In this document: positions 6,428 through 58,308 of the stretch, piece after piece | Layout: every line of letters begins with the position of its first letter | How positions within the stretch are numbered: the stretch's first letter is position 1 | From: Verrucomicrobiaceae bacterium | Lineage (GTDB): Bacteria > Verrucomicrobiota > Verrucomicrobiia > Verrucomicrobiales > DEV007 | Length of the DNA: 64,000 nt | Direction of reading: 5' to 3' | NCBI GenBank assembly: GCA_024229495.1 | Contig: JAAESJ010000233.1 | Span: 5,144 to 69,143 of the forward strand | Program-made: the position numbers and the translations under genes | Notes under the pieces: generated by a model | Told to the model about the DNA's origin: nothing | The model's database searches: none | What the model saw: only the letters and a program-made list of their open reading frames with translations

Positions 6428-6445
6428 GATTTAAGCTTCAACCCC

Positions 6446-10342: not shown

Positions 10343-10381
10343 GATTGGAGCTTGGTTTCAGCCACAGCGTCAATTCCCTTT

Positions 10382-14754: not shown

Positions 14755-14875
14755 GGGCTGTCAACTGACCCGTGGTGCAGTGCGTGATACCATGACGCTT
14801 TTCGCTTGGATGTTTCAGTGATCTTTAGTAATAAATAATATTAAACGTTAATAAAACTAAGGTTTCACAACATTA

Positions 14876-16315: not shown

Positions 16316-16325
16316 ATCATCTTTG

Positions 16326-18284: not shown

Positions 18285-18434
18285 ACGATACTTGCCGCTT
18301 TGGGCTGCAGCGTTTAGACTCTGCGGCTATAATGAACTCTGAGGTTGCCCTTGCCGCGGCTCTATTCATTGACCTGCCATTGTGCAGAATGGCGCGGGGA
18401 AGTGGCGAAGCCGTTGATGCAGAGTTTTCCATTC

Positions 18435-30851: not shown

Positions 30852-30859
30852 TTGACGGG

Positions 30860-31636: not shown

Positions 31637-31648
31637 TTTCTTGTTCCT

Positions 31649-42008: not shown

Positions 42009-43076
42009 TTACTCGGGTGTTTCTTTTTTTCCTGCAAATAGGTGCAGGTATTCACCGTATCCCTCCTCGACGAGCTTGGACTTGGGGATAAAGTGCAGTG
42101 AGGCTGAGTTGATGCAGTAGCGTTGACCACCTTTTTCCGGGGGGCCGTCATTGAATACATGGCCAAGGTGGGAATTGCCGGTCTTGGCCCGCACCTCGGT
42201 TCGCGCGTAGCCGATCTTGAAGTCGGTTTTAGTCTCGATTTCCCCCTTGTCTATCGGTTTGGTGAATGCCGGCCAGCCGCAACCGGAATCATACTTGTCT
42301 TTTGAGGAGAAAAGGGCTTCCCCGGAAATGATGCACACATAGATTCCTTCATCGAAGTGTTTGTCATACTTGTTGGTCCAGGCGCGCTCGGTGGCTTCAT
42401 GTTGGGTAACCTGGTATTGAAGGGGGGTGAGCGTCTTGCGGAGTTCTTCATCAGAGAGAGGCTTGTAGGTTTCGCGTTTTGGCATTGGCTTAATGCTTTT
42501 ATCTGGTGAGGATTGGCTGGAGGCAGTTTTTTCGGGAGAAGTTGCGGGTGCGGGATTGTTTTGCTTGGGTGCGGGATCGGTTCCCTTGATGGGTTGCATA
42601 TCAGTTCCTTTTTTCTGTATCATGAGCTGATACTGGGTTTCATCAATTTGTAGGCCTGAGCCGTCGTCCAAGACCACAGCGCGCGTATTGTTGTACACCC
42701 AAGGACTGGCGAGCATGATTTTTTGCTCCAAAGAGAGATTGCCATGCAGTCGGTTGTATAACACATGACGGATTTCGCCGGTTTGAGGATGCTTGAAGCG
42801 AGTCAGGGTATAATTTGATCCCTCTTTCTCATTCTTGTTTTCAAATGCAGCGTTAGAGATGGCTTCTTCCAGATTCTCTGCCGGGAACTTGTTTCCAAAT
42901 GCACTAAAGATTAAGCCGTGGATGCCTTTTAGCTTCTGTATCTCTTTGGACTGCGTTGCCGCAGTTCGCATGTCCTTACAGGCAGTTGTTGAGAGAGCCC
43001 ATGTGATCAGCGTAGCGAAGAGGATATGGGTCGGAGCTTTGGCTTTATTGATTGTCATATGAGCTATTTGTATCAT
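42009..43076 (-). CDS. msrB: Exported peptide-methionine (R)-S-oxide reductase MsrB fused to an unknown ~200-aa N-terminal domain
   Basis: C-terminal [18 protein letters not shown]...[32 protein letters not shown]...GHVFNDGP...RYCINSASL is MsrB. The N-terminus has a signal/lipobox-like segment [16 protein letters not shown]. Alternative start ATG 43058. Confidence 0.8.
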
Positions 43077-44029: not shown

Positions 44030-44112
44030 GCCAGGGTGGCGAAACTGGTAGACGCGCCAGATTTAGGATCTGGTGTCCTTCGGACGTGCAGGTTCGATTC
44101 CTGTCCCTGGTA
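44030..44112 (+). tRNA. tRNA-Leu (anticodon TAG), type II with long variable arm
   Basis: GCCAGGG acceptor stem / GTGGCGAAACTGGTAGACGC D-arm / CCAGA-TTTAGGA-TCTGG anticodon arm (TAG at 44064-44066) / GTGTCCTTCGGACGT variable arm / GCAGGTTCGATTCCTGT T-arm / CCCTGGT-A. CCA is not encoded. The overall pattern is close to enterobacterial tRNA-Leu. Confidence 0.9.
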
Positions 44113-44219: not shown

Positions 44220-44813
44220 ATGAGGTTTCGAGGCATGGCATTAATGACAATGTGCGTGGCAGGCCTGTTACTGGTTCCTGCATGGCAGCTACGGGCTGAT
44301 CTTCATCGCTTTGAAAATGCCGATGGAAGCAAGTCCTTCTATGCGGAGTTGCTTCGCGTTGATAACAAGAAGCAACTGGTGACGGTTCGTATGGTCAGTG
44401 GCAGGGAAATGCACTTCCCGGTTTCCATTCTCAGTAAAAAAGACCAGGAATGGGTTGATGTTCAGAAAGAGATTCTTGCAGCGGGTCGCTGGCTACGGCT
44501 GAAACTTACCGGAGAGTGGGGCAAGAGGACAGTGACCAAGGCGGAGTCATCAAAGACGATTCTCAGTGAGCGGCTTTACTACTCCGAATTGTCCAATTTC
44601 GGCTCCTTGCCACTCAAGGACCTGGAGATCACCTACAATATTCACCTTTTCCGGGATGATGGTAAGAGCGGTAGCCGCTCTGTACGCACGCACACTGAGA
44701 AAGTCAGCTATCTGAGTTCCGTTCCGCGCAGGGACGGGTTGGAGCCTGTCGTGCTCTCCCAGACCATGCCCCTGAGCAGGGTGAGCGGGAGTAGCGCTCC
44801 CGGAGGAGGGTGA
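44220..44813 (+). CDS. Secreted SHD1 (SLA1 homology domain 1)-containing protein
   Basis: Signal peptide MALMTMCVAGLLLVPA. DGSKSFYAELLRVDNKKQLVTVRMVSGREMHFPVSILSKKDQEWV matches the SHD1 pattern common in PVC bacteria. It ends at TGA 44811-44813, but the same frame stays open for 46 more codons (see findings). Confidence 0.6.
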   Translation: MRFRGMALMTMCVAGLLLVPAWQLRADLHRFENADGSKSFYAELLRVDNKKQLVTVRMVSGREMHFPVSILSKKDQEWVDVQKEILAAGRWLRLKLTGEWGKRTVTKAESSKTILSERLYYSELSNFGSLPLKDLEITYNIHLFRDDGKSGSRSVRTHTEKVSYLSSVPRRDGLEPVVLSQTMPLSRVSGSSAPGGG

Positions 44814-45088
44814 TGTCTCTCCCCAAGATCGGTGAGTTCACCGAGGAGTTCAGGTCCCAAGGTTGACTACAAGCGCGATGCCGTGGAGAAGATCGTGGTG
44901 ACGGTTAGCAAGTCGGGGCAAGAGGTCTTTCGCTACTCCACGGGCGACTAACTAGAAGCAATATTGCAGGAAAGTGGGCTTGCGTTGCCGGAATTAATTA
45001 GGAAGTATTGACTTTTTTTCCTATATAAATCGACTTACTGCGGGTTTTCCTAATTCCAAACAGTACGCTAGGATATGCGTCTAATTTA

Positions 45089-46948
45089 TTGGATAAATTT
45101 ACCATGGCATTTGCACACAAGACGGACATCGCTGTAATTGACTGTATAGGTGGCACCTTCGCGCAGGCGGTCAATTCACCCTTCATCATTGGCTCGGGAC
45201 CGGAGTGTCACCTTAGGGTGGATGATGACCGGGTCCTTGATCAGCACTGCTTGATTGAGAAGACAAAGAAGGGGATTCAGATCAGGGCAGTGCAACCGGA
45301 CCACCCAAGTGGGGAAATGGTGATCAACGGCTCATCAGCCAACCTTTCTCCGCTCAAGCGCCCCCAAGAGTATTCACTACAGATTGGCAGAAGCTTCCTG
45401 ATCATTGGTGCGGCTAAGGCGACCAAGGCGGAGGTTCTTCAGCGTTGGGGAATGGAGATCAGAAATACGGGTTGGATTATCAACAAGTCCAATGCAGCAA
45501 GTGCTTCACGTCCGCTGGCGTTACAGGAGGTATTCGCGGCCCGGGACGCCATGGCGTTGGACCCGGACTCAACACCGGTATTCAAGGGGGGAAGTCAGGT
45601 GGGGTTTTACCTGCGACAATTAATGATACGTGAGGATGCTTCGCATGTGGCGGCGCCGATGGCAGTGGTTGAGGATGCGGTAGATGCTCCGGTGGCAACA
45701 CGAGTTGAGGAGGGTGATGTGCGCCCGCCAGATGTAACTCGATTTGTTGACAGCGAAATTGGCGATTTTGGATGTCCGACATGCTGGTTGCGATTCGACA
45801 GCGGTGACGTCATGCACGTTGCCGTTCATGAGTCACTCTTTGGAGATCCGCTCCTGGGCGAGGAGCACATGAGACGATTTGAGGCTACCCGGTTCAATGA
45901 CCGGGGGCAGGCCCTTGATGAGCAGGGGGTGCCATGCACGGAGATTGCCTGTCCGCATTGTCGACGAACTCTGCCTCCAGGATTTTTTGATGATCCGCAT
46001 CGTATCTTCTCCATTGTCGGTGCACCGCAGTCCGGTAAGTCCTATTACCTTACCGTGTTGATCAAGCTGTTGCAGACTACGCTATTCAAGAAGTTTGGCA
46101 TTGTCTTCCGTGATGCCGACCCGACCGGTAACGCTCCGCTTAACGAGATGAAGAGTCATCTGTTCAGTGCGCAATCTCCCGCTCAGGCATTTCTCACCAA
46201 GACCCAGCTTGAGGGAGAGATGTATGAGCGATTGCCGCGGTATGACAAGATGGTTACTCTGCCCAAACCCTTCATTTTCTCTCTTTCCGGCGCTGATACA
46301 GATGAGGGCGCGTGTTCGGTTGTGTTTTATGACAATGCCGGCGAGCATTTTCAACCCGGGCAGGATTCAGCCAATTCCCCGGGGGCACAGCACATCGCCG
46401 CCTCTGATGCGATCTTTTTCCTTTTCGACCCGACAATCAACCCTGACTTCAGGGCCTGCATTACCGGGGCGGATGATCCGCAGCTTTCCTCACACGTCTC
46501 CGATCAACAGGATGTTATCCTTGCCGAGACCGAGGTGCGCATGAAGAAGCTTTTAGGCTATGGCAGGCGGGAACGAGTCGATACGCCATTTGCGGTGATT
46601 GTAGGCAAGTGTGATGCCTGGATCGATAAAATTGGGGTTGATAAATTCCGTGATCCTATCGCTGACGGACGCATTGACCTTGGTGCCATTGAGGAAAACT
46701 CTGCCCATGTGCGTGCATTAATGGAGGAATACTGTCCCTACATCGTTGCCAACGCGGAGACCATTTCCTCCGACGTTACTTATTTTGCGTCAAGTGCCTT
46801 CGGTCATACCCCGGTCACCTTTGAGGATGACAAGGGGATTACCCGCATTGGTCCGGATCCCACAAAGATCAACCCCATGTTTGTCGAGGTGCCGACCTTA
46901 TGGGCGTTGTCAAGAATTCAGCCGGAGCTTGTTCCCTCGTTCCGCTGA
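45089..46948 (+). CDS. FHA-like domain + split zinc ribbon + TRAFAC-type P-loop GTPase (gene 1 of a three-gene operon)
   Basis: 619 aa. The FHA-like region is FIIGSGPECHLRVDDDRVLDQHCLIEK...MVINGSS...YSLQIGRSFLII (aa ~17-107). The zinc ribbon is C229PTC232 ... C288PHC291. GTPase motifs are G1 GAPQSGKS (nt 46019-46042), G3 DNAGE (46331-46345) and G4 GKCD (46604-46615). No TM segment. The start is TTG 45089 or ATG 45104. Confidence 0.75.
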   Translation: MDKFTMAFAHKTDIAVIDCIGGTFAQAVNSPFIIGSGPECHLRVDDDRVLDQHCLIEKTKKGIQIRAVQPDHPSGEMVINGSSANLSPLKRPQEYSLQIGRSFLIIGAAKATKAEVLQRWGMEIRNTGWIINKSNAASASRPLALQEVFAARDAMALDPDSTPVFKGGSQVGFYLRQLMIREDASHVAAPMAVVEDAVDAPVATRVEEGDVRPPDVTRFVDSEIGDFGCPTCWLRFDSGDVMHVAVHESLFGDPLLGEEHMRRFEATRFNDRGQALDEQGVPCTEIACPHCRRTLPPGFFDDPHRIFSIVGAPQSGKSYYLTVLIKLLQTTLFKKFGIVFRDADPTGNAPLNEMKSHLFSAQSPAQAFLTKTQLEGEMYERLPRYDKMVTLPKPFIFSLSGADTDEGACSVVFYDNAGEHFQPGQDSANSPGAQHIAASDAIFFLFDPTINPDFRACITGADDPQLSSHVSDQQDVILAETEVRMKKLLGYGRRERVDTPFAVIVGKCDAWIDKIGVDKFRDPIADGRIDLGAIEENSAHVRALMEEYCPYIVANAETISSDVTYFASSAFGHTPVTFEDDKGITRIGPDPTKINPMFVEVPTLWALSRIQPELVPSFR

Positions 46949-46979
46949 ATGGGTTTGAAGGCTTGTTGATAGAAAGTCC

Positions 46980-49900
46980 ATGGCATACCAACTCATCTAC
47001 ACCAGTGTTAGCCGGGGACTGATTCCCGGTCGCAGCGGATATACCGTTGCGGCAAGGCACCGGCAGATCCGTGATCGGCTGGTATCCGACATTGAGCGCA
47101 TCAGCGGGTATACATTTGCCACCTCCGGTGTTTCTCCGGTGATCTACGCACACCGCAGAATTTCCTGCTCGGGCAAGGAGTATCATGTCCTGACAAGGAA
47201 CAAGGATGCGGGTTCGGATTATACCGGGCGCACCAATCACCTGGCGCATCACCTAGTCTGTGAAGCTGATGAGCTTTCCGATTGCGGGGCCTCGCCGGCG
47301 GAAATTCTGCATGGTTTCGATTGGCTGGAGAGCTATGAGGATGACCCGCGTTATCTTGAGGACAATGAGATCATCGACCTTGGGAAATTTTCAGGGACCT
47401 TCAGTCTGCCGGCAAGGAACTGGCAGGCGGTGCGAGGTGAGGCGGGGGATGCAGCCCTGCTTATGGATGAGAAGGGCAAGCCCGATAGTGCATTCGTTGT
47501 GGCTTCTTCCGGCGATGATGCTGAGGCAAGAAAACTCCTCTCTTTGTATGCCGAGTCCCTGCAACTGGCGCAGTCATCAGATGATACCCCGGCAATGTGG
47601 GAGGCTACATTCACCACGTATCTGCAACAGGTTGACACTCTTGCTGACTTTGATTGGGCCGGGTGCACGGAAGAGCAGGCCTTGTTACAGCGCCCGGGCA
47701 ATCGCATGGTATTGAACCTTGCTGCGATCGACGCGCCAACACCCGGATCAAAGCTGGCAAAGCTTGCGGCAACCGGCCGGGCTGAGCCGCCGCCACCAAC
47801 TCACAGAGCACCGGTAAGCTTGCCGCAGCCTGATGCCTTGCAGCAACAGGCTTCAGATGTCGGGCAATCCGACTTTGGCGAGCAGGACTTACAGAAGGGA
47901 GGCCAGTCGCGCCGGGTAACCTTCACTCCTGTTGATTCTCAGGGAGAGGTGAAGAGGCGGGGACCCTTGAAGTTGCGGAGTCCAAGTCCGGTTCAAGCGC
48001 CATCGGTTTCCATGCAGTCATCGGGGGAGGGGAAACTCGATTTTTTGAAGCGCCCGGAAAATCTTCGCTTTGTCATAGGAGGCGGTGCTGCTGCCGTATT
48101 GGCGCTTGGGCTTTTATGCTATTACCTCTTCAGTGTTCATCCCCGTCAGGATTTTGAGGCTGAGGTTAAGGGGAATATCGCCAATGATTATTGGCAGGGA
48201 GCCATGGACCTCATCGATAAGGAGAAGGAGAACATGGACGTAGAGTTGGTCGAGGAGCTTCGCCGTGAGGTGATAAGGGCGATGCTTCTTCAGGCTGAGG
48301 AGATTAATGAGAGGTATGCCACGGAAAATGATGAAAAGGTGAAGGAACTTCAGGAAGAGGTGTCGGCAAAGCTGGAGAAGTTGCAGCGATTTGAGGAGAA
48401 ATACGATCTTCGAAATGAGGATATTGAAAACCTTGTGGCAAGCTTCGAGAGGATTAAGAAGACCAAGATCAATAAGGAATTATTGAATCCCGCGAGCCCG
48501 GGAGTTGCCTCTTCCGGTAATAAGCCATCCCCGGGGGATACTCCTGATCCCAAGGAGCAATCGTCGGGCAAGGAGGTGGTTGACGGTGGCAATAAGGATG
48601 TCACGTCGGGTGAACCTGTTGAGAAGGAGACAAGGGAGGGGGTGTTACCTAACTCTGTTTACCTGTTTCTCAATGATCAAACTGTGGCACTGGAGAAAGT
48701 CCAATACAGTGAATCCTGGGCGGGGTTGCAGAATGGAAAGGAGGGCCAGAGAAAGGTGCTCATGCGTCATTACGGATTGAGGCCCGACAACCTGCTGTTG
48801 TTAGATCCATCATCCGGGGATCAATACAGTTATAAGTTTCCGGAAAGCGCTGAAGAGGAATCATCCGATGGGTATTTTCCTCTTGATGGTGATTTGAACG
48901 TTAAGGTGATGTTCAAAGGGAGTGAGACAGTGTTGTTGAAAAGGGGTTCCGCCGGAGATGAAGCGAATAATGCCTGGGATACGGCATTGAGCAACCTCTT
49001 TGCTTTTGAGGGACAGGGTAACAGGTTTCAGGTGTTACTCTGGAGTGGGGTACCCTTCAAGGTTACCAGGGTCAAGCCTTTTACCATGAGTGGAAAGGTT
49101 GTTGGGGTGACCGATGGTTTCGGGAGATACCTTGCTTCATTCAAGGCGGGAGATTCTTTTGGGGCTAAAGCCGATCCAACGGAAATTTTCATGCGTTACG
49201 TTTCCGGGAACTCTTCAGCAGGAGAGAAGTTATCCTTTGAAAGTGACCGTTTCAAGTTGCCCTTGGAGGACGGTTACAGGCAGCTTACGATTGATTTTAG
49301 TTCCAATGGGGACAAAAGCAGGGGTGATATTGCGGATCTTGGGAAGAAAGTGGATGAGGCAAAGGCAAGTCTTGGTAATTATGAAAGTTACCGAAGGTGG
49401 TTTGCTTATCGCGAGTCACTGAAAAAGGATTTGGGGCAGATGGGTAGGGATTATATAACAAGATTCAAGGAAAAGGATTACCCCCAGATTTGTGATCCGG
49501 GAAATTTTTCCAAGGAGGATGATGTTCGTGAGCAAATCCTTGAGTTCGCGGAGGACATGGTGGACGGGTTTCCTGATGCACTGGAAGAGCAGGGAGTTGG
49601 TGATTCGGATGTCAGGAGAGTTACATTTTCCCTGTCTTCCAGCAAATTCAGTGAACTGAGCTTTGCGTCCACTGTTGCCAAATTCAAAATGGTAATGGAT
49701 GCGTTTGCAGAGTCTTGCCGTGGCCTTGCGAAATCATCTTACAGGGATGACGATGACGACCGTGTTTATCGCATAAGGGACAGGGATGCGCGTGAAGAGA
49801 TTGAGAAATTTGCCGAGCGCTGGGAGGATTTTTTCGGCGGTGAAAAAGGTGGGCGACTATGGCATATCGTTGAGGCTAAACCTAGAGTGCCAAACATGAC

Positions 49901-50102
49901 AGAAAAGGAATATAGTCGGATGAAGCGTCGCCTTAATGAGCTAGTAAAGCGCAAGGCTGCTGCGGATAAGGCTAACAAGAGGTTTAATTATCTCAATACG
50001 AGCGGGATGCCTCCGGGAATTTATGAGATCGTGTTCGTGTTCGGGGGAGATAAACAGATGCCGTTCGTGATCTGGAGCAAGGAGGGGAAAAGCGGAAGAT
50101 GA
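46980..50102 (+). CDS. Large single-pass membrane protein with a possible GAP1-like (GTPase-associated protein 1) N-terminal domain (gene 2 of the operon)
   Basis: 1040 aa. The N-terminus reads MAYQLIYTSVSRGLIPGRSGYTVAARHRQI. A Pro-rich linker covers aa ~250-350 and a TM helix FVIGGGAAAVLALGLLCYYLF covers aa ~363-385, nt 48066-48134. A charged coiled-coil-like stretch covers aa ~405-500 and a P/S/G-rich spacer aa ~503-550. A ~490-aa C-terminal region has no recognised motif. Confidence 0.7.
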   Translation: MAYQLIYTSVSRGLIPGRSGYTVAARHRQIRDRLVSDIERISGYTFATSGVSPVIYAHRRISCSGKEYHVLTRNKDAGSDYTGRTNHLAHHLVCEADELSDCGASPAEILHGFDWLESYEDDPRYLEDNEIIDLGKFSGTFSLPARNWQAVRGEAGDAALLMDEKGKPDSAFVVASSGDDAEARKLLSLYAESLQLAQSSDDTPAMWEATFTTYLQQVDTLADFDWAGCTEEQALLQRPGNRMVLNLAAIDAPTPGSKLAKLAATGRAEPPPPTHRAPVSLPQPDALQQQASDVGQSDFGEQDLQKGGQSRRVTFTPVDSQGEVKRRGPLKLRSPSPVQAPSVSMQSSGEGKLDFLKRPENLRFVIGGGAAAVLALGLLCYYLFSVHPRQDFEAEVKGNIANDYWQGAMDLIDKEKENMDVELVEELRREVIRAMLLQAEEINERYATENDEKVKELQEEVSAKLEKLQRFEEKYDLRNEDIENLVASFERIKKTKINKELLNPASPGVASSGNKPSPGDTPDPKEQSSGKEVVDGGNKDVTSGEPVEKETREGVLPNSVYLFLNDQTVALEKVQYSESWAGLQNGKEGQRKVLMRHYGLRPDNLLLLDPSSGDQYSYKFPESAEEESSDGYFPLDGDLNVKVMFKGSETVLLKRGSAGDEANNAWDTALSNLFAFEGQGNRFQVLLWSGVPFKVTRVKPFTMSGKVVGVTDGFGRYLASFKAGDSFGAKADPTEIFMRYVSGNSSAGEKLSFESDRFKLPLEDGYRQLTIDFSSNGDKSRGDIADLGKKVDEAKASLGNYESYRRWFAYRESLKKDLGQMGRDYITRFKEKDYPQICDPGNFSKEDDVREQILEFAEDMVDGFPDALEEQGVGDSDVRRVTFSLSSSKFSELSFASTVAKFKMVMDAFAESCRGLAKSSYRDDDDDRVYRIRDRDAREEIEKFAERWEDFFGGEKGGRLWHIVEAKPRVPNMTEKEYSRMKRRLNELVKRKAAADKANKRFNYLNTSGMPPGIYEIVFVFGGDKQMPFVIWSKEGKSGR

Positions 50103-53100
50103 AGACGGCGACCCAGGTTCTGACAGGTGCTATCTGGAAAGTCCTTTCCGGAAAGGATGAGAATCATGATGTAGAGCAAACCGCGAGGGAGTTTGTCGAC
50201 CTGTGCAGTGATGTTGCTGAGCGGTTGGAAGGTTGCCGGGATTTTAAGGTGGAAGGGGAAGAGGAGAAGGCGGTGGATTTGGCCGAGAAGGAACCACCAC
50301 TCATGGAGGCGCTTGAGACACTGGCGAAGTTTCGCCAGAGGCAGGCTTGGGCGGATTATTGCAGGAAACATTCATTGCCGGTGGCGCCTGAAATCGACAG
50401 GGAAGGAGCTGACTGGGTTTTAGGGCTCTATAAGCAATGGGAAGGGACATCCAAGCTGCTGTGGAAAAAATACCGCGATGCGGTTATTCGCAAGGATCAG
50501 CAGGTGATGATCTCCGTAATTCACCGGATCATCAAGCTGGATCCTTCAGATCGCTCAGCCCTGGATGAGAACAACCGTATTATGCGGCGCTATTTCCGGG
50601 AACAGAAGACGGAACTGGAGAAGCTTGTTGATGCCGGTGAGCAGGACAAGGCACTGGAGCTTGCCGATGGGCTTGACCGACTTCCCTTTGACAAGCTGAA
50701 GAGGGGCAGGGCATGGGAAACGGCGATCAAGTGGCGCAACGCGCTCAAGCGCGAGAGCGATGAGAAGAAGCTGGATGACTTGATTGCCGAGCTGCCTGGC
50801 CAGTGTGAATCCCGGGAGCTGGAAAGTGTCAGGGAGAGTGTTGCTGAGTCGCGCACCCTGCTCAGGATTCACAAGTTTGATCTGGAAGGTGAAGAGAAGG
50901 GAAGGCTTGATGATGCAGAGGCCTGGATTCCTGCGGAGGAGGACAGGTTGAAGAAGGAGGGGCTTTCCAAGGAGGCTGTTGAGCGTTGCATGAAGGAGCT
51001 TACCAGGATAGAGGGCAACTGGGCGGTTGTTTCCAAGGGTTCGGTTGGGTCCGCCAGTGAGGAGCGCAGAAAATTGAGTAACAGTTGGCGGGAGGTAGAG
51101 AAGATTGGCAGTGGAATCGGCCATGAGTTTTCCGGAAGGGTGAGTGCTGCCAGGCAGAAGCTTGATGTTATTGTTGCCAATCTCAAGAAGAAGAGAATGC
51201 GGAAAATTCGCACGGTTGCTGCCGTGCTGAGCATGATTGGCCTTGCGGTGAGTTACTACTTCTATGCTCAGTGGCGCAGCACGTGGATGATCGAGAAGTT
51301 TGCCGTCTACAAGGGCAAGGGCTTGGCTTTGCCATTGAGGAAGCTTGTGGATAGCACCAATACCTATCGCAAGCCGATCGAGCTACTCGCGCATAAGCCC
51401 TTCGCAAGCAGGCTGAAGAGTGCGCGAGCCTGGCTTGAGCGGGAGGAAGCCCATATGGAGGGGGTGAAAGAGACCATTCGGTCCATTGACAAGGAGACGG
51501 CGAAGCAATTTACCCGTCCCATTGATGACTACTACGCGGAGGTTGAGGCGATAGAGGGCAGGATAGCGGATGCTGTTACCGATCTCTCGGAGTTGCTTGC
51601 CCGGGAAATGGGACCTTTCAAGAAACGTTGGCTGGCTCATGTGGACGCTTACGTCAACGGACAGAACGAGCGGCGAAACAAGGCAATTAGCGAGATGGCC
51701 GATGTTCTGCAATCGGCACCTGCATTGCAGGTTGCCGCACGTGATGATGCCCTTTTCGAGCAGGTTAATGCCCTTGTCGTGGAGGTGCGCGATGCCATGC
51801 AGACGATCATTCCTCCATCAAAACCACTTGAGGGGGCGAGTAAGCAGGTCAAGGACCTTGGTCCTCAATTAACGGATCTTTCCAAGCGCATGGAATTGTT
51901 CCGCGGTGCGCTGGAGGCGGCCAACAAGGCTGCCAGCCTGGCCGATTATAATTTGGCAATGAAACGGTTCCAGGAGGGACCCTTCGAGAACACTCCTGAA
52001 CGTGCTGCGGCGATCGAAGTCCTGGGCTTTGAGAAGACGATTACCCAGGTGACGGGAGAGATCATTGCCCCGGGTGATCCCAGGGCATGGGCCTTTTTCC
52101 AGGCCAACCGTAACAAGGTTGACCTTTATCCCAAGGTGATTGAGGAGAGCGAGCGGGTTGTTCTTGAGCAGCTGAGTAAAGATGAGAAGCTTGAGGAGCT
52201 TTACCGGTGCGCTTTCAGGGAGGTGCCCAGCGGGAAGATCTTTGTGCGTTATTGTGCCGGGCCGGTTGAATTGCGCAAGCGCAGGGTCGGCCCTGTTGAG
52301 ATCGTGGAGAGATTGGGTGACTTCTTTCAGGGGGGGCGGTTTGGAATCGTGAAGTATGAGTTCAAGAGTGTTCCCGCAGCAACGATCAACTGGGTTGGCA
52401 CGGATTTGACCAGCGAGGAAATTAGCACAGAGACCAACTTGTTCAGGAAGATCCGGCCCAACGAGACACTGATGAGCCAAAGTCAGCAGTATTACCGTTC
52501 GGGGGTATTGTCCGTCTTCGATGATATTTTATCAGCCACTGATGTGCACCCTCTTTTCAAGGCCTACATGCAGGTGGAGTTGAGTAAGGTGATCATGCGG
52601 CGGGCACACGAATGGGGAACCTTGTTTGCACCCAGTGTAGTGAGTGACTTTCAGGAGATTAAAGCCATTGTTCCCGCTCTACTTGGCAGGCATGACTGGC
52701 TGTGGACAGACAAGTATCCCGAGCAAGAAAAGGCCATAGCAGACTTCTACGCCAAGCGAGGTGACTACAGCTATGTGAAGGAGTCGAAGGTTAACCGCAA
52801 CCTGATCGAGGAGGCAATTAAATCCGGATTTGGCCTGGCGGGCTACATGGACATTGATAGACAACCTGTTCTCCTTCCGGAGGCGGAGCAGGCAAGCAAG
52901 ATTTACGGATCGTTGACGCCCAATGTGCCGGCAACCACTGTCTTGCAACGCACCGGGGATGAGCAATGGCAAAAGGTGGGGAATGCCGCACCATTCACAC
53001 CGCTCTTTTTCTTTAAAGGTGACAGTGGAAAGATCATGGAGGAGGTTGCCGATAAGGAAGGTGAGGATGTTGACCGTATCCGGACGATGTCTCTACCATT

Positions 53101-53110
53101 TTTCCGATGA
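50099..53110 (+). CDS. Large single-pass membrane protein, helical N-terminal region, unknown function (gene 3 of the operon)
   Basis: 1003 aa. The start overlaps the gene 2 stop (ATGA 50099-50102). The ~365-aa charged helical N-terminal part ends in NLKKKRMRKIR. A TM helix TVAAVLSMIGLAVSYYFYA covers aa ~370-390, nt 51206-51268. It is followed by a ~610-aa C-terminal region with no recognised motif. Confidence 0.7.
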   Translation: MKTATQVLTGAIWKVLSGKDENHDVEQTAREFVDLCSDVAERLEGCRDFKVEGEEEKAVDLAEKEPPLMEALETLAKFRQRQAWADYCRKHSLPVAPEIDREGADWVLGLYKQWEGTSKLLWKKYRDAVIRKDQQVMISVIHRIIKLDPSDRSALDENNRIMRRYFREQKTELEKLVDAGEQDKALELADGLDRLPFDKLKRGRAWETAIKWRNALKRESDEKKLDDLIAELPGQCESRELESVRESVAESRTLLRIHKFDLEGEEKGRLDDAEAWIPAEEDRLKKEGLSKEAVERCMKELTRIEGNWAVVSKGSVGSASEERRKLSNSWREVEKIGSGIGHEFSGRVSAARQKLDVIVANLKKKRMRKIRTVAAVLSMIGLAVSYYFYAQWRSTWMIEKFAVYKGKGLALPLRKLVDSTNTYRKPIELLAHKPFASRLKSARAWLEREEAHMEGVKETIRSIDKETAKQFTRPIDDYYAEVEAIEGRIADAVTDLSELLAREMGPFKKRWLAHVDAYVNGQNERRNKAISEMADVLQSAPALQVAARDDALFEQVNALVVEVRDAMQTIIPPSKPLEGASKQVKDLGPQLTDLSKRMELFRGALEAANKAASLADYNLAMKRFQEGPFENTPERAAAIEVLGFEKTITQVTGEIIAPGDPRAWAFFQANRNKVDLYPKVIEESERVVLEQLSKDEKLEELYRCAFREVPSGKIFVRYCAGPVELRKRRVGPVEIVERLGDFFQGGRFGIVKYEFKSVPAATINWVGTDLTSEEISTETNLFRKIRPNETLMSQSQQYYRSGVLSVFDDILSATDVHPLFKAYMQVELSKVIMRRAHEWGTLFAPSVVSDFQEIKAIVPALLGRHDWLWTDKYPEQEKAIADFYAKRGDYSYVKESKVNRNLIEEAIKSGFGLAGYMDIDRQPVLLPEAEQASKIYGSLTPNVPATTVLQRTGDEQWQKVGNAAPFTPLFFFKGDSGKIMEEVADKEGEDVDRIRTMSLPFFR

Positions 53111-53140: not shown

Positions 53141-53893
53141 TTAATTCCAGGGTAAAGGGCGCCCGAGCAATGATTCCAACCCTGAGTTTTGGGCGTAGAG
53201 TTGTTCGCTGAGGTAGGCGCGCAGAGCTTCGGGAATCGGTGAGGGGGGGCGTGTGTTCTCAGGCTGAGCGGCCAGTTGCGGATGAATTCCCTTGTCGGGG
53301 TTCACTCCAAGGAAAATGAAGAGTTCCCGAAGCAGGGCTTCCGGATCAGTTGCCGCCTGTTCAAGGAAGCCGCACCACAATTGTGATGAATTATAGTATT
53401 CAAGCCAAGTTTTCAGGCAACCGAGGTAGTCGCCACGCATGGCGACCTGAGGCAGTTTCATGAATTCATGTAGTTCATCAATTTTCGCTTCCTCAACGGG
53501 CTTATTGTGGAACTGAGGGAAATCTTTGCGGGCATGGGACCATGCCCGCTCAACCGGGTCGCGCATGATAAAGAGTAACTTGAGATCAGGCATCCAGGAG
53601 CGAGCCACGGAAATTCTTCCTGATTCAAGGATGGCGTAGGCTGGAGTGACCTCGCCGGCAATCATTGACTCGGGAGCGCCGGAGAAATGACGGGCATAGT
53701 CGTCCTGGGAGTCTATGAAGTGACGATCAAAGAAATGCAACTCCTTTGGTGAGCTTGTCCAGATTTCCGGGTGCCGATTGAGCTGTTTGGTCAACCAGGA
53801 TGTCCCGGAACGCATTGCGCCGATGCCAATAAAATCGGGCAGGCGGATGTTGCTGGAAGCATGATTCATATAGGATATGAGCGGAATGTTCAA
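53141..53893 (-). CDS. Sulfotransferase domain protein (PAPS-dependent)
   Basis: 250 aa. FIGIGAMRSGTSWL (5'-PSB loop) and FIMRDPVERAWS (3'-PB region). Confidence 0.75.
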   Translation of the reverse strand: MNIPLISYMNHASSNIRLPDFIGIGAMRSGTSWLTKQLNRHPEIWTSSPKELHFFDRHFIDSQDDYARHFSGAPESMIAGEVTPAYAILESGRISVARSWMPDLKLLFIMRDPVERAWSHARKDFPQFHNKPVEEAKIDELHEFMKLPQVAMRGDYLGCLKTWLEYYNSSQLWCGFLEQAATDPEALLRELFIFLGVNPDKGIHPQLAAQPENTRPPSPIPEALRAYLSEQLYAQNSGLESLLGRPLPWN

Positions 53894-53953
53894 CCGGATC
53901 GACTTAATGAACAGGATTTTGTTTTTTCCCAGTAATGCTCCAAGTTGTTACTA

Positions 53954-55438
53954 ATGTCGACGTCAGCTTATAAGAATCTTGTGGAACGGTGCAGTGAGAT
54001 TGCCTTGTATAACAGCACTTCTGCCCTGCTGGGATGGGATCAGGAGACCTGTTTGCCGAAGAAGGGTGTTGCTTACCGTGCTGAACAGTGTGCCTTGATG
54101 AAGGGGAGGTCTCACCGCTTGTTTTGTGCTCCTGAGGTTGGTGGATGGATCAGTGAATGTGAGGATGGTGATGTTGGTGAGGATCCGGCGCGATTGGCAA
54201 ATGTGCGTGATTGGCGATGGGCATATGACCGTGCGACAAAGTTACCGGAGGAACTCGTCGAGACATCCGAGCGCGTAAGGGCTCATGCCATGTCGGCATG
54301 GGCTAGTGCAAGGAAGGAGGATGATTTCAGTAAGTTCAGGCCGCACCTTGAGACTATTATTGATATCAGTCGGCAGAAGGCAGAGTGCTTTGGCTATAAT
54401 GAAACTCCTTATGATGCGCTCATTGAAGATTACGAGCGTGGCACATCCACAGCGGATGTGGCTGAATTGTTTGAGGAGCTAAAGCCGCAACTGCGTGAGA
54501 TTGGATTGGCTGCCGCGCGACGATCGGAGACGGTTTCCGAAGAGATGCTCAACGGTCATTATCCTCAGGAAGCGCAGTGTGCTTTCAACGAGAAGGTGGC
54601 AAGGGCATTTGGGTTCGATTTTGAAGCAGGGCGCATTGACACGGCTGTTCATCCGTTTTGCTCAGGCCTTGCGCCTGGCGACACGCGATTGACAACCCGG
54701 TATGATGAGAAGGATTTCTGCAGTTCCCTTTATGGGGTGCTCCATGAGACCGGGCATGGCCTATATGAGCAGGGGCTTCCCGCGGAGCATCATGGCACAC
54801 CGGTTGGCAATTCGGTTTCCCTTGGCATTCATGAATCTCAGTCGCGGCTCTGGGAGAACCACGTCGGTCGGCAACCGGCCTTTTGGGAGCATTGGTTTCC
54901 TGTCGCAAAGGAAGTCTTTGGCCCGTTATCTTCTCGGAGAGTGGACGAGGTTATTGCCTTTACCACGCGGTCCCGACCATCACTGATCAGAGTTGAGGCT
55001 GATGAGGCCACTTATGACCTGCACATTGTTTTGCGCTTTGAGATAGAACGCGACTTGATTGCGGGTGATTTGGCCGTGGCGGATCTTCCTGAGGCATGGA
55101 ATACCAAGTTCGAGGAGTTTTTCGGGCTTAGTGTTCCCAATGATACCGAAGGGTGCCTGCAGGACATTCACTGGAGCATGGGGGCACTTGGTTATTTTCC
55201 CACATATACCATCGGTAACCTCGGGGCTGCTCAGTTGTTTGCCAAGGCTCATGAGCACCTCCCTGGTATTGATGGGGAACTTGCCTCGGGGAATTATGCC
55301 AGATTGCTGGAGTGGTTGCGGTGCAAGATTCATGAGCCGGGAGGGCAAATGCTGCCTTCGGATTTAATGCGTGTGGCGACTGGGGAGGAACTTTCACCAA
55401 GTTATCATCTTGAGCACCTTCGCAGTCGTTACCTGTAG
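53954..55438 (+). CDS. M32 family carboxypeptidase (Taq-type)
   Basis: HETGHGLYEQG (HExxH zinc site), IHESQSRLWEN and DIHWS blocks, ~495 aa. The track start is TTG 53945; the first ATG is at 53954. Confidence 0.85.
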   Translation: MSTSAYKNLVERCSEIALYNSTSALLGWDQETCLPKKGVAYRAEQCALMKGRSHRLFCAPEVGGWISECEDGDVGEDPARLANVRDWRWAYDRATKLPEELVETSERVRAHAMSAWASARKEDDFSKFRPHLETIIDISRQKAECFGYNETPYDALIEDYERGTSTADVAELFEELKPQLREIGLAAARRSETVSEEMLNGHYPQEAQCAFNEKVARAFGFDFEAGRIDTAVHPFCSGLAPGDTRLTTRYDEKDFCSSLYGVLHETGHGLYEQGLPAEHHGTPVGNSVSLGIHESQSRLWENHVGRQPAFWEHWFPVAKEVFGPLSSRRVDEVIAFTTRSRPSLIRVEADEATYDLHIVLRFEIERDLIAGDLAVADLPEAWNTKFEEFFGLSVPNDTEGCLQDIHWSMGALGYFPTYTIGNLGAAQLFAKAHEHLPGIDGELASGNYARLLEWLRCKIHEPGGQMLPSDLMRVATGEELSPSYHLEHLRSRYL

Positions 55439-55504
55439 CGGGCATGAACATAAATTTTCTTGTGCCAGCCGTTACTCAGGCATAGGTGGAGACAGAAAGT
55501 ATTC

Positions 55505-56230
55505 ATGATCAGTTATCTCGTATGCGCCACCCACCGTAGCGGCAGCAATTTGCTATGCCAGTCCTTGTGGCATACGGAATTATGTGGGTATCCGCAGGAG
55601 TTTTTTTCACCAACCCGAGCATCTAAAATTGCGGAGGAATATGGTCTGGTTGCCGACCCTCAACTTGATTATCCAGGATATGTATCCGAATTGGTGAGCA
55701 AGAGGGTTTCCTCAAACGGGGTTTTTGGCGCCAAGATCATGTGGTCTCACCTGGAACCATTCCTGACAGGATTGGGGCAGGATTCCATGGCAGATACCGA
55801 CCTGCTTGGCACGATTTTTCCCAACATCCGCTATCTCTGGATACGCAGGGACGACAAGTTGCGGCAGGCGATTTCGATGTGGAAGGCCAAGCAGACGAAG
55901 GTGTATAATTCCCTGCAGACCGAAGGAGGTGCTCATTTAGCAGCTGAGGCGATATATGATTTTAATGAAATAGAGAAAATTAAGCGGCGATTTGAGGATG
56001 AGGACAAGGCATGGGGGGACTTCTTCACTAAGAACAGTATTACGCCGGTGCAAATCCACTATGAGGACTTTGCTGTTCATCATGAAGCGAGGACACTGGA
56101 GATTCTCAGGGAACTGGCCATTGATGTGGGGAAGGCATTTAAGGTTAAGCCCCTGACCTACAAACCGCTTGCAGACTCAACTAATGAAGAATGGCGTGAG
56201 CGATATCTACGTGAGGAAGAAACCAGGTGA
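55505..56230 (+). CDS. Stf0-type sulfotransferase family protein
   Basis: MISYLVCATHRSGSNLLCQSL... (P-loop-like PAPS site) and YLWIRRDDKLRQAISMWKA fit the Stf0/trehalose-2-sulfotransferase family pattern. ATG at 55505. Confidence 0.7.
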   Translation: MISYLVCATHRSGSNLLCQSLWHTELCGYPQEFFSPTRASKIAEEYGLVADPQLDYPGYVSELVSKRVSSNGVFGAKIMWSHLEPFLTGLGQDSMADTDLLGTIFPNIRYLWIRRDDKLRQAISMWKAKQTKVYNSLQTEGGAHLAAEAIYDFNEIEKIKRRFEDEDKAWGDFFTKNSITPVQIHYEDFAVHHEARTLEILRELAIDVGKAFKVKPLTYKPLADSTNEEWRERYLREEETR

Positions 56231-58308
56231 GTGCTAGAATGCAAATGGATCGACTAAATTCGCTAATACTTGTTTGCGCGTTGACATTGTGTTGCTCCTG
56301 CGGTGGAGACAAGGATCCCGGGGTGGATAACTCAGGAGGTGATTCAAAGCCTGCGGGGAGCAGGGGGGGCGGCTTAGGACAGTTTGCCGGTGCGCATGCA
56401 CGGGCGGTCTGGGTGGGGCAGCAGAAATCCGGAAAGATTGATCAGCATGCGGCAGGAAATAACCTGAAGCTCATGGGCTTGGATAGTATGGATAGCCGAG
56501 GTGAACGCGCTATCCTTGATAAAGTGGGCAGCTATGCCCGGCCGTTGTTCACTCCGGATGGGGGACGGGTGGTGTTTAGTAATAAGGGGATTACGAAATC
56601 AGAGAACGGGATCCGTAGCTATAATCCACGTTGTTTTGTGGTGAATTTTGATGGCACAGGACTGGTTGAACTTGGGGAGGGATATGCTGAAGCGATCTGG
56701 CGTGATCCCTCTAGTGGCGAGTTATGGGTTTTTGTGAGTACGGAATTTCAAGATGATGAACGGGTGGTGATGGAGGGTAAGCGCCTGGAGAGGTTCAGGC
56801 TGGAAGCTCCCGAGCAGCGTGAGCTTCTGTGGGACAAGACGCCGGTGGGTGGTGATAGTTTCCGAGTCAGTCGTGACGGACAGAAAATGGTGGGTCAGTT
56901 CCCGTGGCCGGAGTCGGGGGTTGTTGACTTGAAAACCGGTGACTTCAAGCGAATTGGCAATGGATGCTGGACCTCCCTTGCACCAGACAACAGCGGGATT
57001 TCATGGGTGTTTGACGGACCTCACCGTAATGTGAGCATTTATGACAGTAGTGGGAGAATTCTCAACTCGATAGCGATGAATACGCATCCCGACTTGAAGG
57101 GGCAGCGTGTATATCATCCGCGCTGGACCAACCACCCCCATTTTGCAGTAGTCAGTGGTCCTTATATTAATGACAAGAAAAAAGGTGCAGACAGGATTGA
57201 GATTTACCTCGGCAGGTTTGCTGCTGACATGAGTAAGGTCGAACAATGGTATCAGGTGAGCGAAAATGATCGAGCTGATCTTTATGCGGATGTCTGGATT
57301 GAGGGTGGTGATGAGGCATCATTGACGATTCGGGAACGGGAACCGGTGGAGGTTCATGCGGAACATTGGCCGCCGGAGAGTGGGCAATTGTTTTTTGCTT
57401 GGAAGAACAATCGTGAGAATATCGAGACGGGAGGCAGAATTATCCGGGTGCGCGCAGAGGGTGCTGCGCGGTATGGGAAACGGTTTGACCTGGCTCCCGG
57501 GAAAGGTCTTTTTCGAGCGGATGGTATTGATGCTAAGCTCATTAATGGAATGAAATGGTTGATTGTTGATGCAATCATTACTCCTGATAAACACGACGGG
57601 ACAGTGATGGAATTCGGCAACTACCGCCTTTCCCAGAAGGGTAGTGAATTCCGGGTCAATATACGATCCGGTGGAGGTGAGCGTTCAATTCGTTTTGGAA
57701 AACCTGTTTCAGGGCAGCCGTTATATTTACGTTTGCAGTTTGATCAGGAAGGTATGGAGGCGGTAATTAATGGCAAGGTGCAGGAGATCTGGACCTCGCC
57801 GCTTGATGCCAGCAGTAATTGGAAGGATGCCGGAATTGTGTTTGGAGGAGGATGGGACGGAAGGTTGGAACAGGTGGCTTTTTACGGGAGTGTATCAGAT
57901 GAGGTTAGCGTTCCTCAATTGGCGGGGCTTTACGGGATTAAGGCTGTTAGCGGTGAAGACCGGCTCAAGATCCGGGGTAAACTCCTTGAGGTGACACCGC
58001 GGCCGGCCATTGATGAATTGGGAGCATATACCCGCGCTCTGGTCTATCACCTCTATGAGATTGATGATGTTTTGGCAGGAGAATTCAATGCAAAGCGCAT
58101 GGTGGTTGCTCACTGGTCCCTGCTTGATCGTAAGCCCACTGAAGAGGTTCCTTCCCGGGTTGGTGAGGTCTATGAAATGGAAGTAGAGCCATTGGGAAAG
58201 AATCCTCAGCTGAAGAGTGAGCGTACTTTTGATGATACTTCTGACCTTGATGCAGCGATTTATTTCGACATTTCGACACCCCTAATTCAAGAATCAGAGA
58301 ATCCATGA
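56227..58308 (+). CDS. Lipoprotein with TolB-like (PD40) beta-propeller segment and C-terminal LamG/concanavalin-A-like domain
   Basis: Lipobox-like LILVCALTLCCSCGG. The PD40-like segment is YARPLFTPDGGRVVFSNKG. The C-terminal segment TVMEFGNYRLSQKGSEFRVNIRSGGGERSIRFG...GIVFGGGWDGRLEQVAFYG is LamG-like. The start (GTG 56227) overlaps the upstream stop; an alternative ATG is at 56239. Confidence 0.55.
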   Translation: MSARMQMDRLNSLILVCALTLCCSCGGDKDPGVDNSGGDSKPAGSRGGGLGQFAGAHARAVWVGQQKSGKIDQHAAGNNLKLMGLDSMDSRGERAILDKVGSYARPLFTPDGGRVVFSNKGITKSENGIRSYNPRCFVVNFDGTGLVELGEGYAEAIWRDPSSGELWVFVSTEFQDDERVVMEGKRLERFRLEAPEQRELLWDKTPVGGDSFRVSRDGQKMVGQFPWPESGVVDLKTGDFKRIGNGCWTSLAPDNSGISWVFDGPHRNVSIYDSSGRILNSIAMNTHPDLKGQRVYHPRWTNHPHFAVVSGPYINDKKKGADRIEIYLGRFAADMSKVEQWYQVSENDRADLYADVWIEGGDEASLTIREREPVEVHAEHWPPESGQLFFAWKNNRENIETGGRIIRVRAEGAARYGKRFDLAPGKGLFRADGIDAKLINGMKWLIVDAIITPDKHDGTVMEFGNYRLSQKGSEFRVNIRSGGGERSIRFGKPVSGQPLYLRLQFDQEGMEAVINGKVQEIWTSPLDASSNWKDAGIVFGGGWDGRLEQVAFYGSVSDEVSVPQLAGLYGIKAVSGEDRLKIRGKLLEVTPRPAIDELGAYTRALVYHLYEIDDVLAGEFNAKRMVVAHWSLLDRKPTEEVPSRVGEVYEMEVEPLGKNPQLKSERTFDDTSDLDAAIYFDISTPLIQESENP

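Follow-up and report, generated by a model that had tools for sequence, protein, structure and literature searches.

A block of three genes at positions 45089-53110 was analysed in a 64,000-nucleotide (nt) stretch of DNA from the metagenome-assembled genome of a marine Verrucomicrobiaceae bacterium (contig JAAESJ010000233.1, positions 5,144 to 69,143). This stretch is referred to as the window; all position numbers are those of the window, and L-numbers (L002, L004, L013 and so on) denote related loci used for comparison, among them the window's marine clade (nine loci, with GTPases 70-94% identical). On their Pfam matches and order, the three genes constitute the conserved core of a Verrucomicrobia-type GAP1-N2/DO-GTPase2 system, comprising a GTPase (gene 1), a GAP1 protein (gene 2) and a third, unannotated protein (gene 3). 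The open reading frames (ORFs), all on the plus strand, occupy 45089-46948 (619 amino acids, aa, when read from a TTG codon), 46980-50102 (1040 aa) and 50099-53110 (1003 aa). An earlier description of this DNA, made from its letters alone and referred to here as the original prediction, had proposed three same-strand ORFs in 8 kb, and the ORF listing confirmed them at 45089-53110. The gap of 31 nt between genes 1 and 2 (gene 1 stop at 46948, gene 2 start at 46980) and the overlapping ATGA that joins genes 2 and 3 at 50099-50102 were likewise found as described.

The three proteins and their family

45104-46948, plus strand: gene 1, a soluble FHA-like, zinc-ribbon and DO-GTPase2 protein of 614 aa (alternative TTG start at 45089)
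45128-45433, plus strand: FHA-like N-terminal domain (aa ~9-110), without canonical phosphothreonine-binding residues
45749-46003, plus strand: zinc ribbon with a conserved ~55-residue insert (aa ~216-300), with CPTC at aa 224-227 and CPHC at aa 283-286
46004-46945, plus strand: TRAFAC-type GTPase domain (DO-GTPase2) with GAPQSGKS, YDNAGE including the Walker-B glutamate, and GKCD

The true start of gene 1 is likely the ATG at 45104 (614 aa), which is preferred because the resulting MAFAHK N-terminus resembles that of the L004 homologue. The protein passed the Pfam DO-GTPase2 model marginally (27.7 bits; gathering cut-off, GA, 27), and the same model was matched by 20/20 of its homologues at E <= 0.1 (best 2.7e-7). 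The GTPase motifs were located at aa 306-313 (G1, GAPQSGKS), aa 409-414 (G3, YDNAGE) and aa 501-504 (G4, GKCD), and the P-loop GAPxSGKS, the DxxGE Walker B (YDNAGE) and the KxD (K502 and D504) are invariant among the 20 homologues. A hydropathy scan detected no hydrophobic segment in gene 1, in agreement with the original prediction of a soluble protein carrying G1, G3 and G4 motifs. A family-profile search of PDB sequences retrieved no solved structure related to the GTPase domain.

The four cysteines C224, C227, C283 and C286 make up one four-cysteine site and are invariant in the 20 homologues. The zinc-ribbon stretch is strongly conserved, with a window-50 identity of 65-82% to the far marine clade and a non-synonymous divergence (dN) of 0.005 from L013. 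At the N-terminus, aa 27-63 gave sub-threshold Pfam matches to FHA (18.8 bits, GA 20.7) and Yop-YscD_cpl (17.4 bits), models that were matched in 10/20 (best 7e-6) and 8/20 of the homologues, respectively. When the family profile was searched against the PDB, positions 13-83 matched FHA structures only, at non-significant scores (E = 0.15-1.3). Canonical FHA domains bind phosphothreonine through a GR motif, with its conserved Arg, and the Ser and His of an SxxH motif. At the aligned positions gene 1 reads IGSG (also the family consensus) and LDQH, and the canonical phosphothreonine-binding residues are not present in this protein. In L009 the GTPase (32% identical) has a second zinc ribbon, CPxC...CxxC, where the window protein has the FHA-like domain, together with a C-terminal extension of ~70 aa.

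46980-50102, plus strand: gene 2, a predicted bitopic GAP1-N2 protein of 1040 aa (Pfam GAP1-N2 at aa 1-124)
46980-47774, plus strand: predicted cytoplasmic two-lobed module of GAP1 (aa 1-265), with an AlphaFold2 (AF2) confidence score (pLDDT) of ~90
47775-48032, plus strand: predicted disordered, P/Q/S-rich cytoplasmic linker (aa 266-351), with pLDDT <50 at aa 269-351
48063-48131, plus strand: predicted single transmembrane (TM) helix of GAP1 (aa 362-384), with a hydropathy peak of 2.02, inside AF2 helix 359-401

The original prediction had found nothing to place genes 2 and 3 in a family. This was overturned by the match of gene 2 to GAP1-N2, at 76.6 bits against a cut-off (GA) of 24 over aa 1-124, and by the matching of the same model in 49/49 gene 2 homologues. 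The Pfam search for DO-GTPase and GAP1 models that had been proposed as a check thus placed DO-GTPase2 in gene 1 and GAP1-N2 in gene 2, and with these matches the first of two roles offered for the block, a GTPase-centred conflict family with GAP1, is right as a classification. GAP1-M was not matched in the window protein and was matched in 4/49 homologues. The C-terminal part of gene 2 consists of the TM helix and an outer domain, in place of the globular C domain described for GAP1. No exact match to the gene 2 sequence was found in the records.

An AF2 model of GAP1 was built from 49 sequences (mean pLDDT 68.6). In this model the GAP1-N2 lobe has the order strand-strand-helix-strand-strand-strand-helix and is followed by a second alpha/beta lobe; the latter, confident at aa 125-265, could be a divergent M domain. 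Beyond aa 265 come a disordered linker, the TM helix and a coiled coil, then a beta-rich stretch that is poorly modelled and, at the C-terminus, a helical domain modelled with confidence. The linker has a window-50 identity of 11-21% to the far marine clade. The single TM helix that had been proposed for gene 2 was placed by hydropathy at aa 362-384, and the homologues have a TM helix at the equivalent position. Invariant residues of the N-terminal module include E39, S42, D80, R84, N86, A89 and H91.

A Foldseek search of the PDB with this module returned TagF of Acinetobacter baylyi (9t0n) as the top match (E = 6.4e-3, prob 0.97), with an alignment of 313 columns that spans 313/324 residues and both TagF domains. 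Weaker matches were to P. aeruginosa TagF (6iz8), FLCN/FNIP and GATOR1. Longin domains are meanders of five strands flanked by helices on either face, and longin and roadblock domains serve as GTPase platforms (PMC3747258). The N-terminal module of GAP1 looks like a longin/TagF-type fold on this model, a likeness that stays a lead because it has no sequence-profile support: the module profile retrieved neither TagF nor anything else from PDB sequences. Foldseek of the gene 2 model against viral structures also returned nothing. The longin-type order in the AF2 model and the TagF, FLCN/FNIP and GATOR1 matches suggest that the module may act as a GTPase platform.

50099-53110, plus strand: gene 3, a predicted bitopic protein of ~1000 aa, founder of an unannotated family and conserved after GAP1
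50099-51118, plus strand: predicted cytoplasmic, all-helical, tetratricopeptide repeat (TPR)-like N-terminal domain (aa 1-340), a low-confidence AF2 fold
51212-51274, plus strand: predicted TM helix of gene 3 (aa ~372-392), after KKKRMRKIR, from hydropathy, homologues and an AF2 helix
51275-53107, plus strand: predicted periplasmic part (aa 393-1003), a helical bundle then a mixed domain, at low AF2 confidence

Gene 3 gave no match to Pfam, NCBIfam or PADLOC models. Searching 1.84 billion cluster representatives with a family profile returned 997 matches at E <= 1e-3 and, among the 150 matches listed, nearly all are 970-1050 aa long and colinear with gene 3. The Brevifollis protein is 21% identical and likewise colinear (E = 2e-54). 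The idea that genes 2 and 3 are paralogues was rejected (BLASTP E = 2.3). The AF2 model of gene 3 was made from a shallow alignment of 7 sequences and has an overall pLDDT of 55; block means are mostly 66-87 at aa 1-300, where the protein is all helices, and <65 beyond. Foldseek matches of the N-terminal region to TPR/alpha-solenoid structures were weak and non-significant (E >= 5e-3), and the family profile matched generic coiled-coil and helical-bundle proteins only in the PDB. Conserved residues include F748, W839, G840, W867, G915 and P968. Neither gene 2 nor gene 3 has a TonB_C or TolA match in Pfam; TolA_bind_tri was matched weakly in 1/15 gene 3 homologues.

The TM helix of gene 3 falls below the hydropathy threshold in the window protein, is clear at 369-387 in the homologues and lies inside a long AF2 helix; the single TM helix of the original prediction therefore stands, at aa ~372-392. 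An N-in topology is supported by the N-flank of this helix, which holds 7 K/R and no D/E. Hydropathy and flanking charges suggest N-in/C-out bitopic proteins for both gene 2 and gene 3, an anatomy that would fit a GTPase acting on the two cytoplasmic N-termini.

The family to which the locus belongs was described by Kaur, Burroughs, Iyer & Aravind (2020, eLife; PMC7159879), who predicted computationally that DO-GTPases and GAP1 form the constant core of GTPase-centric conflict systems. Among the features given there are zinc-ribbon (ZnR) GTPases with 'usually two' ribbons, the Walker-B glutamate and a GAP1 gene directly downstream of the ZnR-GTPase gene; GAP1 consists of N, M and C globular domains, is often fused to a C-terminal TM segment, and occurs in Verrucomicrobia. 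The same study describes an FNIII-repeat protein with rapidly evolving repeats, lineage-specific accessory genes and components that are variable between close relatives, counts 904 organisms with GAP1-N2 systems, and concludes that most GAP1-N2 neighbourhoods point to cytoskeleton-like complexes, not toxins (PMC7159879). A literature search found no experimental study of any DO-GTPase/GAP1 family member.

The window locus resembles these systems in its TRAFAC GTPase with a Walker-B glutamate and a zinc ribbon, in the GAP1-N2 gene directly downstream, in the C-terminal TM helix of GAP1, in its occurrence in Verrucomicrobia, in the combination of a constant core with a part that varies between close relatives, and in the GYF-domain membrane proteins of its relatives within the Planctomycetes-Verrucomicrobia-Chlamydiae (PVC) group. 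It differs in having an FHA-like domain at the place of the first ribbon of the 'two ZnR' architecture, in having only a single GTPase, and in that the variable part is the outer domain of GAP1 itself. Moreover, the third bitopic protein of ~1000 aa and the module of a TolQ/ExbB and two TolR-like proteins are not in the paper's main text, and the TolQ/TolR-like module of the relatives is missing at the window locus. No fn3-type Pfam match was found in genes 2 and 3, or in 15 gene 3 and 49 gene 2 homologues. A cryptic beta-sandwich at aa 560-770 of GAP1 is graded as possible because this stretch is beta-rich but modelled at low confidence.

A variable cassette in GAP1

48548-50059, plus strand: variable cassette, encoding the GAP1 C-terminal domain (codons ~523-1027), which is predicted to be periplasmic; delimited by a blastn gap and low identity

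When compared by blastn with L023, L012 and L005, the whole region aligned at 76-78% nucleotide identity except for 48548-50059; L013 aligned across this interval too. The proteins encoded by the cassette form at least four allele groups that are 26-28% identical to the group of the window, in a clade whose GTPases are at least 90% identical. Genomes with GTPases 92% identical can thus differ in the cassette down to an identity of ~26%. Outside the cassette, the same comparisons gave 82-87% identity for the GAP1 N-terminus and 77-84% for gene 3. Gene 3 follows directly 3' of the cassette and does not co-vary with it. The proportion of non-synonymous differences (pN) in the cassette is 0.48, and its GC content (0.481, and 0.515 at third codon positions, GC3) is lower than in the remainder of gene 2 (0.545 and 0.59).

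The most likely explanation of this sharp-bordered mosaic is that recombination among old alleles has replaced the outer domain. A silent-cassette mechanism of the antigenic-variation kind was also considered and was rejected, there being no second or silent copy of any GAP1 C-terminal allele within the 64-kb window. Point mutations under positive selection are not demonstrable in the cassette because the synonymous divergence (dS) is saturated between allele groups; inside the allele group of the window, dN/dS is 0.12-0.30, and recombinational replacement or old allelic lineages are the better fit. Against L013, dN/dS is 0.04 for gene 1, 0.18 for gene 2 and 0.13 for gene 3, and all three are judged functional and under purifying selection. 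The genes diverge at very unequal rates: identity to the L004 clade is 72% for the GTPase, 32% for GAP1 and 38% for gene 3.

The sharp borders of the 1.5-kb cassette, its low identity and its lower GC suggest that the variable outer domain of GAP1 is a contact or sensing surface. The rapidly evolving role of the FNIII repeats is played here by the GAP1 cassette.

Related loci and the downstream motor genes

Relatives of the GTPase were found in 409 of 185,579 GTDB species representatives. The loci of the best 80 of these 409 relatives, plus earlier loci, were surveyed by ORF calling and BLASTP, and 55 loci were decidable for downstream genes. The order GTPase, GAP1, third protein was found in every surveyed locus with enough sequence, and the conserved synteny that had been put forward as a check on the original prediction was thus observed across Verrucomicrobiota. 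Of the best 80 relatives, 78 are labelled Verrucomicrobiota and two carry other labels. L071 and L081 are typical verrucomicrobial seven-gene clusters in metagenome-assembled genomes labelled Candidatus Baltobacteraceae and Saccharimonadales, labels that probably reflect mis-binning and not true occurrence.

Four further genes (genes 4-7) lie downstream of the trio in 40/55 decidable loci: one for a GYF/DUF4190 membrane protein, one for a MotA/ExbB/TolQ channel and two for TolR/ExbD-like proteins. The channel protein (gene 5) matched Pfam MotA_ExbB at 33-37 bits. The two TolR-like proteins are paralogous, single-TM, coiled-coil proteins in which the cytoplasmic end of the TM helix bears a conserved Asp (FQDIIT and LLLDTLCN), and an Asp at this place is the hallmark position of TolR, ExbD and MotB. 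The second role offered in the original prediction, a trans-envelope module of PVC type, is strengthened by the presence of these MotA/ExbB, TolR-like and GYF genes in most relatives. The full seven-gene form is carried by the culturable species Brevifollis gellanilyticus and Prosthecobacter fluviatilis.

The marine clade of the window has the trio only. A tblastn search of the 64-kb window for genes 4-7 gave no match, and no MotA/ExbB, TolR-like or GYF gene was found in it. Six further loci are without motor genes and nevertheless have gene 4. Within the marine clade the trio stays beside the M32 peptidase, ALGX and PolA genes down to 72% GTPase identity.

Several loci depart from the common arrangement. 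In the Prosthecobacter-type loci L044, L045 and L062 (~14600-16550), ~2 kb separate GAP1 from the third gene, leaving room for an extra gene. In L050 the MotA/ExbB gene and two TolR-like genes lie 3' of the trio on the opposite strand (9422-12108, minus), and the third protein is 1356 aa long. The most divergent cluster, L009, has an extra 326-aa gene upstream (6160-7140, plus), a VWA_2 gene after the motor genes (18220-19272, plus) and an MreB gene 2.5 kb upstream. Phage-integrase, HTH_17 and NERD genes lie 5' of the seven-gene cluster in L008 (1-2200), and HipA and Amidoligase_2 genes do so in L007 (1-2000); these mobile- or defence-like settings contrast with that of the window.

Candidate roles and chromosomal setting

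The locus is read here, tentatively, as a GTPase-gated trans-envelope sensor/coupler. GAP1 would be an N-in/C-out membrane receptor whose outward domain, the cassette exchanged between close relatives, contacts a variable partner. Its two-lobed, longin/TagF-like N-terminal module would dock the soluble GTPase of gene 1 and set its nucleotide state. The GTPase would in turn engage the TPR-like cytoplasmic domain of gene 3, possibly via the FHA-like domain, and gene 3 would carry the state change back across the inner membrane, either as a scaffold or as the output. In most relatives the trio would be wired to a GYF adaptor, a TolQ/ExbB channel and two TolR/ExbD-like subunits, while the marine clade would keep only the sensor-switch-scaffold trio at the locus. 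Because GYF, TolQ/ExbB and TolR/ExbD-like genes accompany the trio in most relatives, the complete system may be a GTPase-gated coupler driven by the proton-motive force (PMF), and it looks like an assembly of the same kinds of parts as Agl-Glt or Tol/Ton. The motor part of the model is not directly applicable to the window, because neither the operon nor the 64 kb around it contains motor genes.

A similar design is that of the Agl-Glt focal-adhesion (gliding) machine of Myxococcus xanthus. Its parts include the GTPase MglA with the roadblock regulator MglB, GltJ (ZnR-linker-GYF-TM), GltG (FHA-TM with an extended arm in the periplasm), GltI (a TPR scaffold that binds the FHA domain) and the TolQ-like AglR with two TolR-like subunits (PMC11135422; PMC11761067). 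The full seven-gene cluster of the relatives similarly combines a GTPase and a platform-type regulator, ZnR, FHA, GYF and TPR-like modules, bitopic proteins with long periplasmic extensions, and a TolQ-like channel with two different TolR-like proteins. However, no homology of components is shown beyond the generic MotA/ExbB family, the domains are distributed otherwise among the proteins, neither a TonB-C domain nor outer-membrane components were found, and the window operon is without the motor and GYF genes. The likeness is an analogy of design, not membership or demonstrated homology.

A number of points weigh against the sensor/coupler reading. The family is known from computation alone, no experiment having been found for any member, and those who defined it read it as a conflict system (PMC7159879). 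The GTPase is a DO-GTPase2 and not MglA. The window operon has no MotA/ExbB, TolR-like or GYF genes, and none occur within 64 kb; TonB-C and TolA domains were not detected by Pfam in genes 2 and 3; and two related loci adjoin integrase/NERD or HipA genes. The TagF/longin likeness of GAP1 comes from one Foldseek match (E = 6.4e-3, target TM-score 0.33), and the TPR-like call for gene 3 is a weak one. The topology was derived from hydropathy and flanking charges only; in gene 3 the charge bias is clear, in gene 2 ambiguous.

The strongest rival, itself somewhat unlikely, is an anti-phage or conflict system in which the outer domain of GAP1 would sense an invader, the GTPase and GAP1 would form a threshold switch, and the system would respond by damaging the membrane or arresting growth, through gene 3 and, in relatives, also through the MotA/ExbB-type channel in the manner of Zorya. 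The definition of the family as a constant core plus components variable between close relatives (PMC7159879) favours this, and the GAP1 cassette shows exactly that pattern of a variable part. On the other hand, the same paper points most GAP1-N2 neighbourhoods to cytoskeleton-like complexes over toxins, and no recognisable effector (nuclease, protease, TIR or pore former) was found in the three or the seven genes. The statement of the original prediction that genes 2 and 3 carry no nuclease or protease motif held, toxin, nuclease, protease and defence models being absent from the Pfam, NCBIfam and PADLOC results; the NCBIfam scan of the three window proteins gave nothing useful. Genes 1-3 of the window and of Brevifollis had no family-specific match in PADLOC-DB 2.0, where only coiled-coil noise appeared, at E > 0.008.

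As in Zorya, whose ZorA and ZorB form a MotAB-like stator, the relatives have a channel of the MotA/ExbB kind in one operon with large, functionally uncharacterised proteins, and gene 5 of the relatives matches ZorA models weakly (E ~1e-5 to 1e-6). These matches are limited to the shared MotA/ExbB channel fold, however; no equivalents of ZorB, ZorC or ZorD were found, and the window has no channel gene. A conflict system would fit the sparseness of the family (409 of 185,579 species representatives), the integrase/NERD/HTH_17 or HipA genes that neighbour some loci, and the tRNA-Leu gene that the close clade has 1 kb upstream. Against this, neither an att-like repeat nor an integrase was found near the tRNA, and the persistence of the marine-clade trio beside Peptidase_M32, ALGX and PolA to 72% GTPase identity looks like vertical inheritance in a housekeeping neighbourhood. 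The sensor/coupler is ranked above a conventional immune system because no effector domain was found and the chromosomal position is stable.

The sensor/coupler and conflict readings are not mutually exclusive, because conflicts also target the exposed parts of Tol/Ton-type machines. A bolder and rather doubtful proposal is that the cluster is not immune but an unrecognised, GTPase-gated, PMF-powered trans-envelope machine, a functional analogue of Agl-Glt or Tol/Ton, in which the cassette-encoded outer domain would be the end in contact with the substrate or partner, the longin/TagF-like GAP1-N2 module would be a bacterial GTPase platform, and the marine trio would be a minimal sensor-switch-scaffold that borrows a motor or dispenses with one.

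It is improbable that the trio is instead a regulatory module for an envelope machine encoded elsewhere, in which the GAP1 N-terminal module would hold the FHA-like domain until a signal arrives, as in TagF-Fha. The conserved N-domain of TagF binds the FHA protein Fha (bioRxiv 10.64898/2025.12.08.692957), and this pair forms a post-translational checkpoint of type VI secretion (PMC5995506; bioRxiv 10.64898/2025.12.08.692957). TagF is the top structural match of the GAP1 module over both domains, the two-domain alpha+beta and alpha/beta architecture of TagF (PDB 9t0n and 6iz8) corresponding to GAP1 aa 1-~300, and the binding of Fha is suggestive because gene 1 carries an FHA-like domain and would offer an FHA-type partner. 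The structural match is marginal, however, and is not accompanied by sequence similarity to TagF; the FHA-like domain lacks the phosphothreonine-binding residues; and no type VI or other secretion gene was found in the neighbourhood of the window or in the related loci. GAP1 also differs from TagF in being membrane-anchored and ~1000 aa long, with a GTPase as its partner. That the three-gene form is a decaying, non-working remnant of the seven-gene system would account for the lack in the marine clade of genes 4-7, present in 40/55 decidable loci, and is very improbable, being already disfavoured by the selection data (purifying selection at dN/dS 0.04-0.18, GTPase motifs invariant), by the intactness of the three genes across the clade, in nine or more loci at species level, and by the six further loci that keep gene 4 without motor genes.

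DO-GTPase/GAP1 systems are widespread, and the family was already described computationally (PMC7159879), including Verrucomicrobia and GAP1 proteins with a C-terminal TM segment. The present locus offers several handles on them: a minimal three-gene form, culturable carriers of the seven-gene form, the idea of GAP1-N2 as a longin/TagF-like platform, a sharply bounded cassette that may mark a surface under diversifying pressure, and a link to a TolQ/TolR-like motor not reported before. If the locus does encode a GTPase-gated envelope machine, the MglA/Agl-Glt principle would be found in a further phylum, there based on an unrelated GTPase; if it encodes a defence system, it would represent a new membrane-based immune mechanism without a conventional effector.

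44951-45088, no strand assigned: AT-rich spacer, presumed promoter region (GC 0.377 against 0.528 for the window)

The AT-rich gap that had been noted 5' of the block is borne out by these values. A promoter within 44951-45088 is only presumed, because a sigma-70 consensus scan of the plus strand gave no sigma-70-like site there; in the scans for sigma-70 promoters and terminators, sites were no commoner than in shuffles, and none lay 5' of gene 1. The chromosomal neighbours are ordinary: a Fur-family regulator, MsrB, an M32 carboxypeptidase and sulfotransferases, with ALGX and PolA identified by synteny with L002.

The tRNA-Leu gene (anticodon TAG) lies at 44030-44112 (plus), ~1 kb 5' of gene 1. 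The site is kept in the close relatives L002, L005 and L023 and is absent in more distant syntenic loci. A genomic-island reading, with this tRNA as a sign of mobility, was rejected on that absence and on the finding of neither an att-like direct repeat near the tRNA nor an integrase among the neighbouring genes. The interval from the tRNA to the operon holds a 197-aa ORF (44220-44813, plus) with a hydrophobic, signal-like N-terminus and no Pfam match; its homologues were found in the closest relatives only (L002, L005/L011 and L023).

The convergent gene correctly foreseen after the block is a sulfotransferase gene (53141-53893, minus). It is one of two, the other being of Stf0 type (55460-56230), that lie on either side of the M32 carboxypeptidase gene. 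The Stf0-type gene is followed by a gene for a 693-aa protein without a Pfam match and then, by synteny with L002, by the ALGX-domain gene, and the region 53141-59354 is possibly a polysaccharide sulfation/acetylation cluster. On the other side of the block, the MsrB (SelR) ORF at 42009-43076 (minus) is 355 aa long as called, with its domain at aa 215-330; the homologues in L002 and L005 are 217-220 aa long, and the called start is probably too far upstream. Further away, a tight run of four same-strand ORFs (314, 258, 473 and 307 aa) lies at 29907-33990 (plus).

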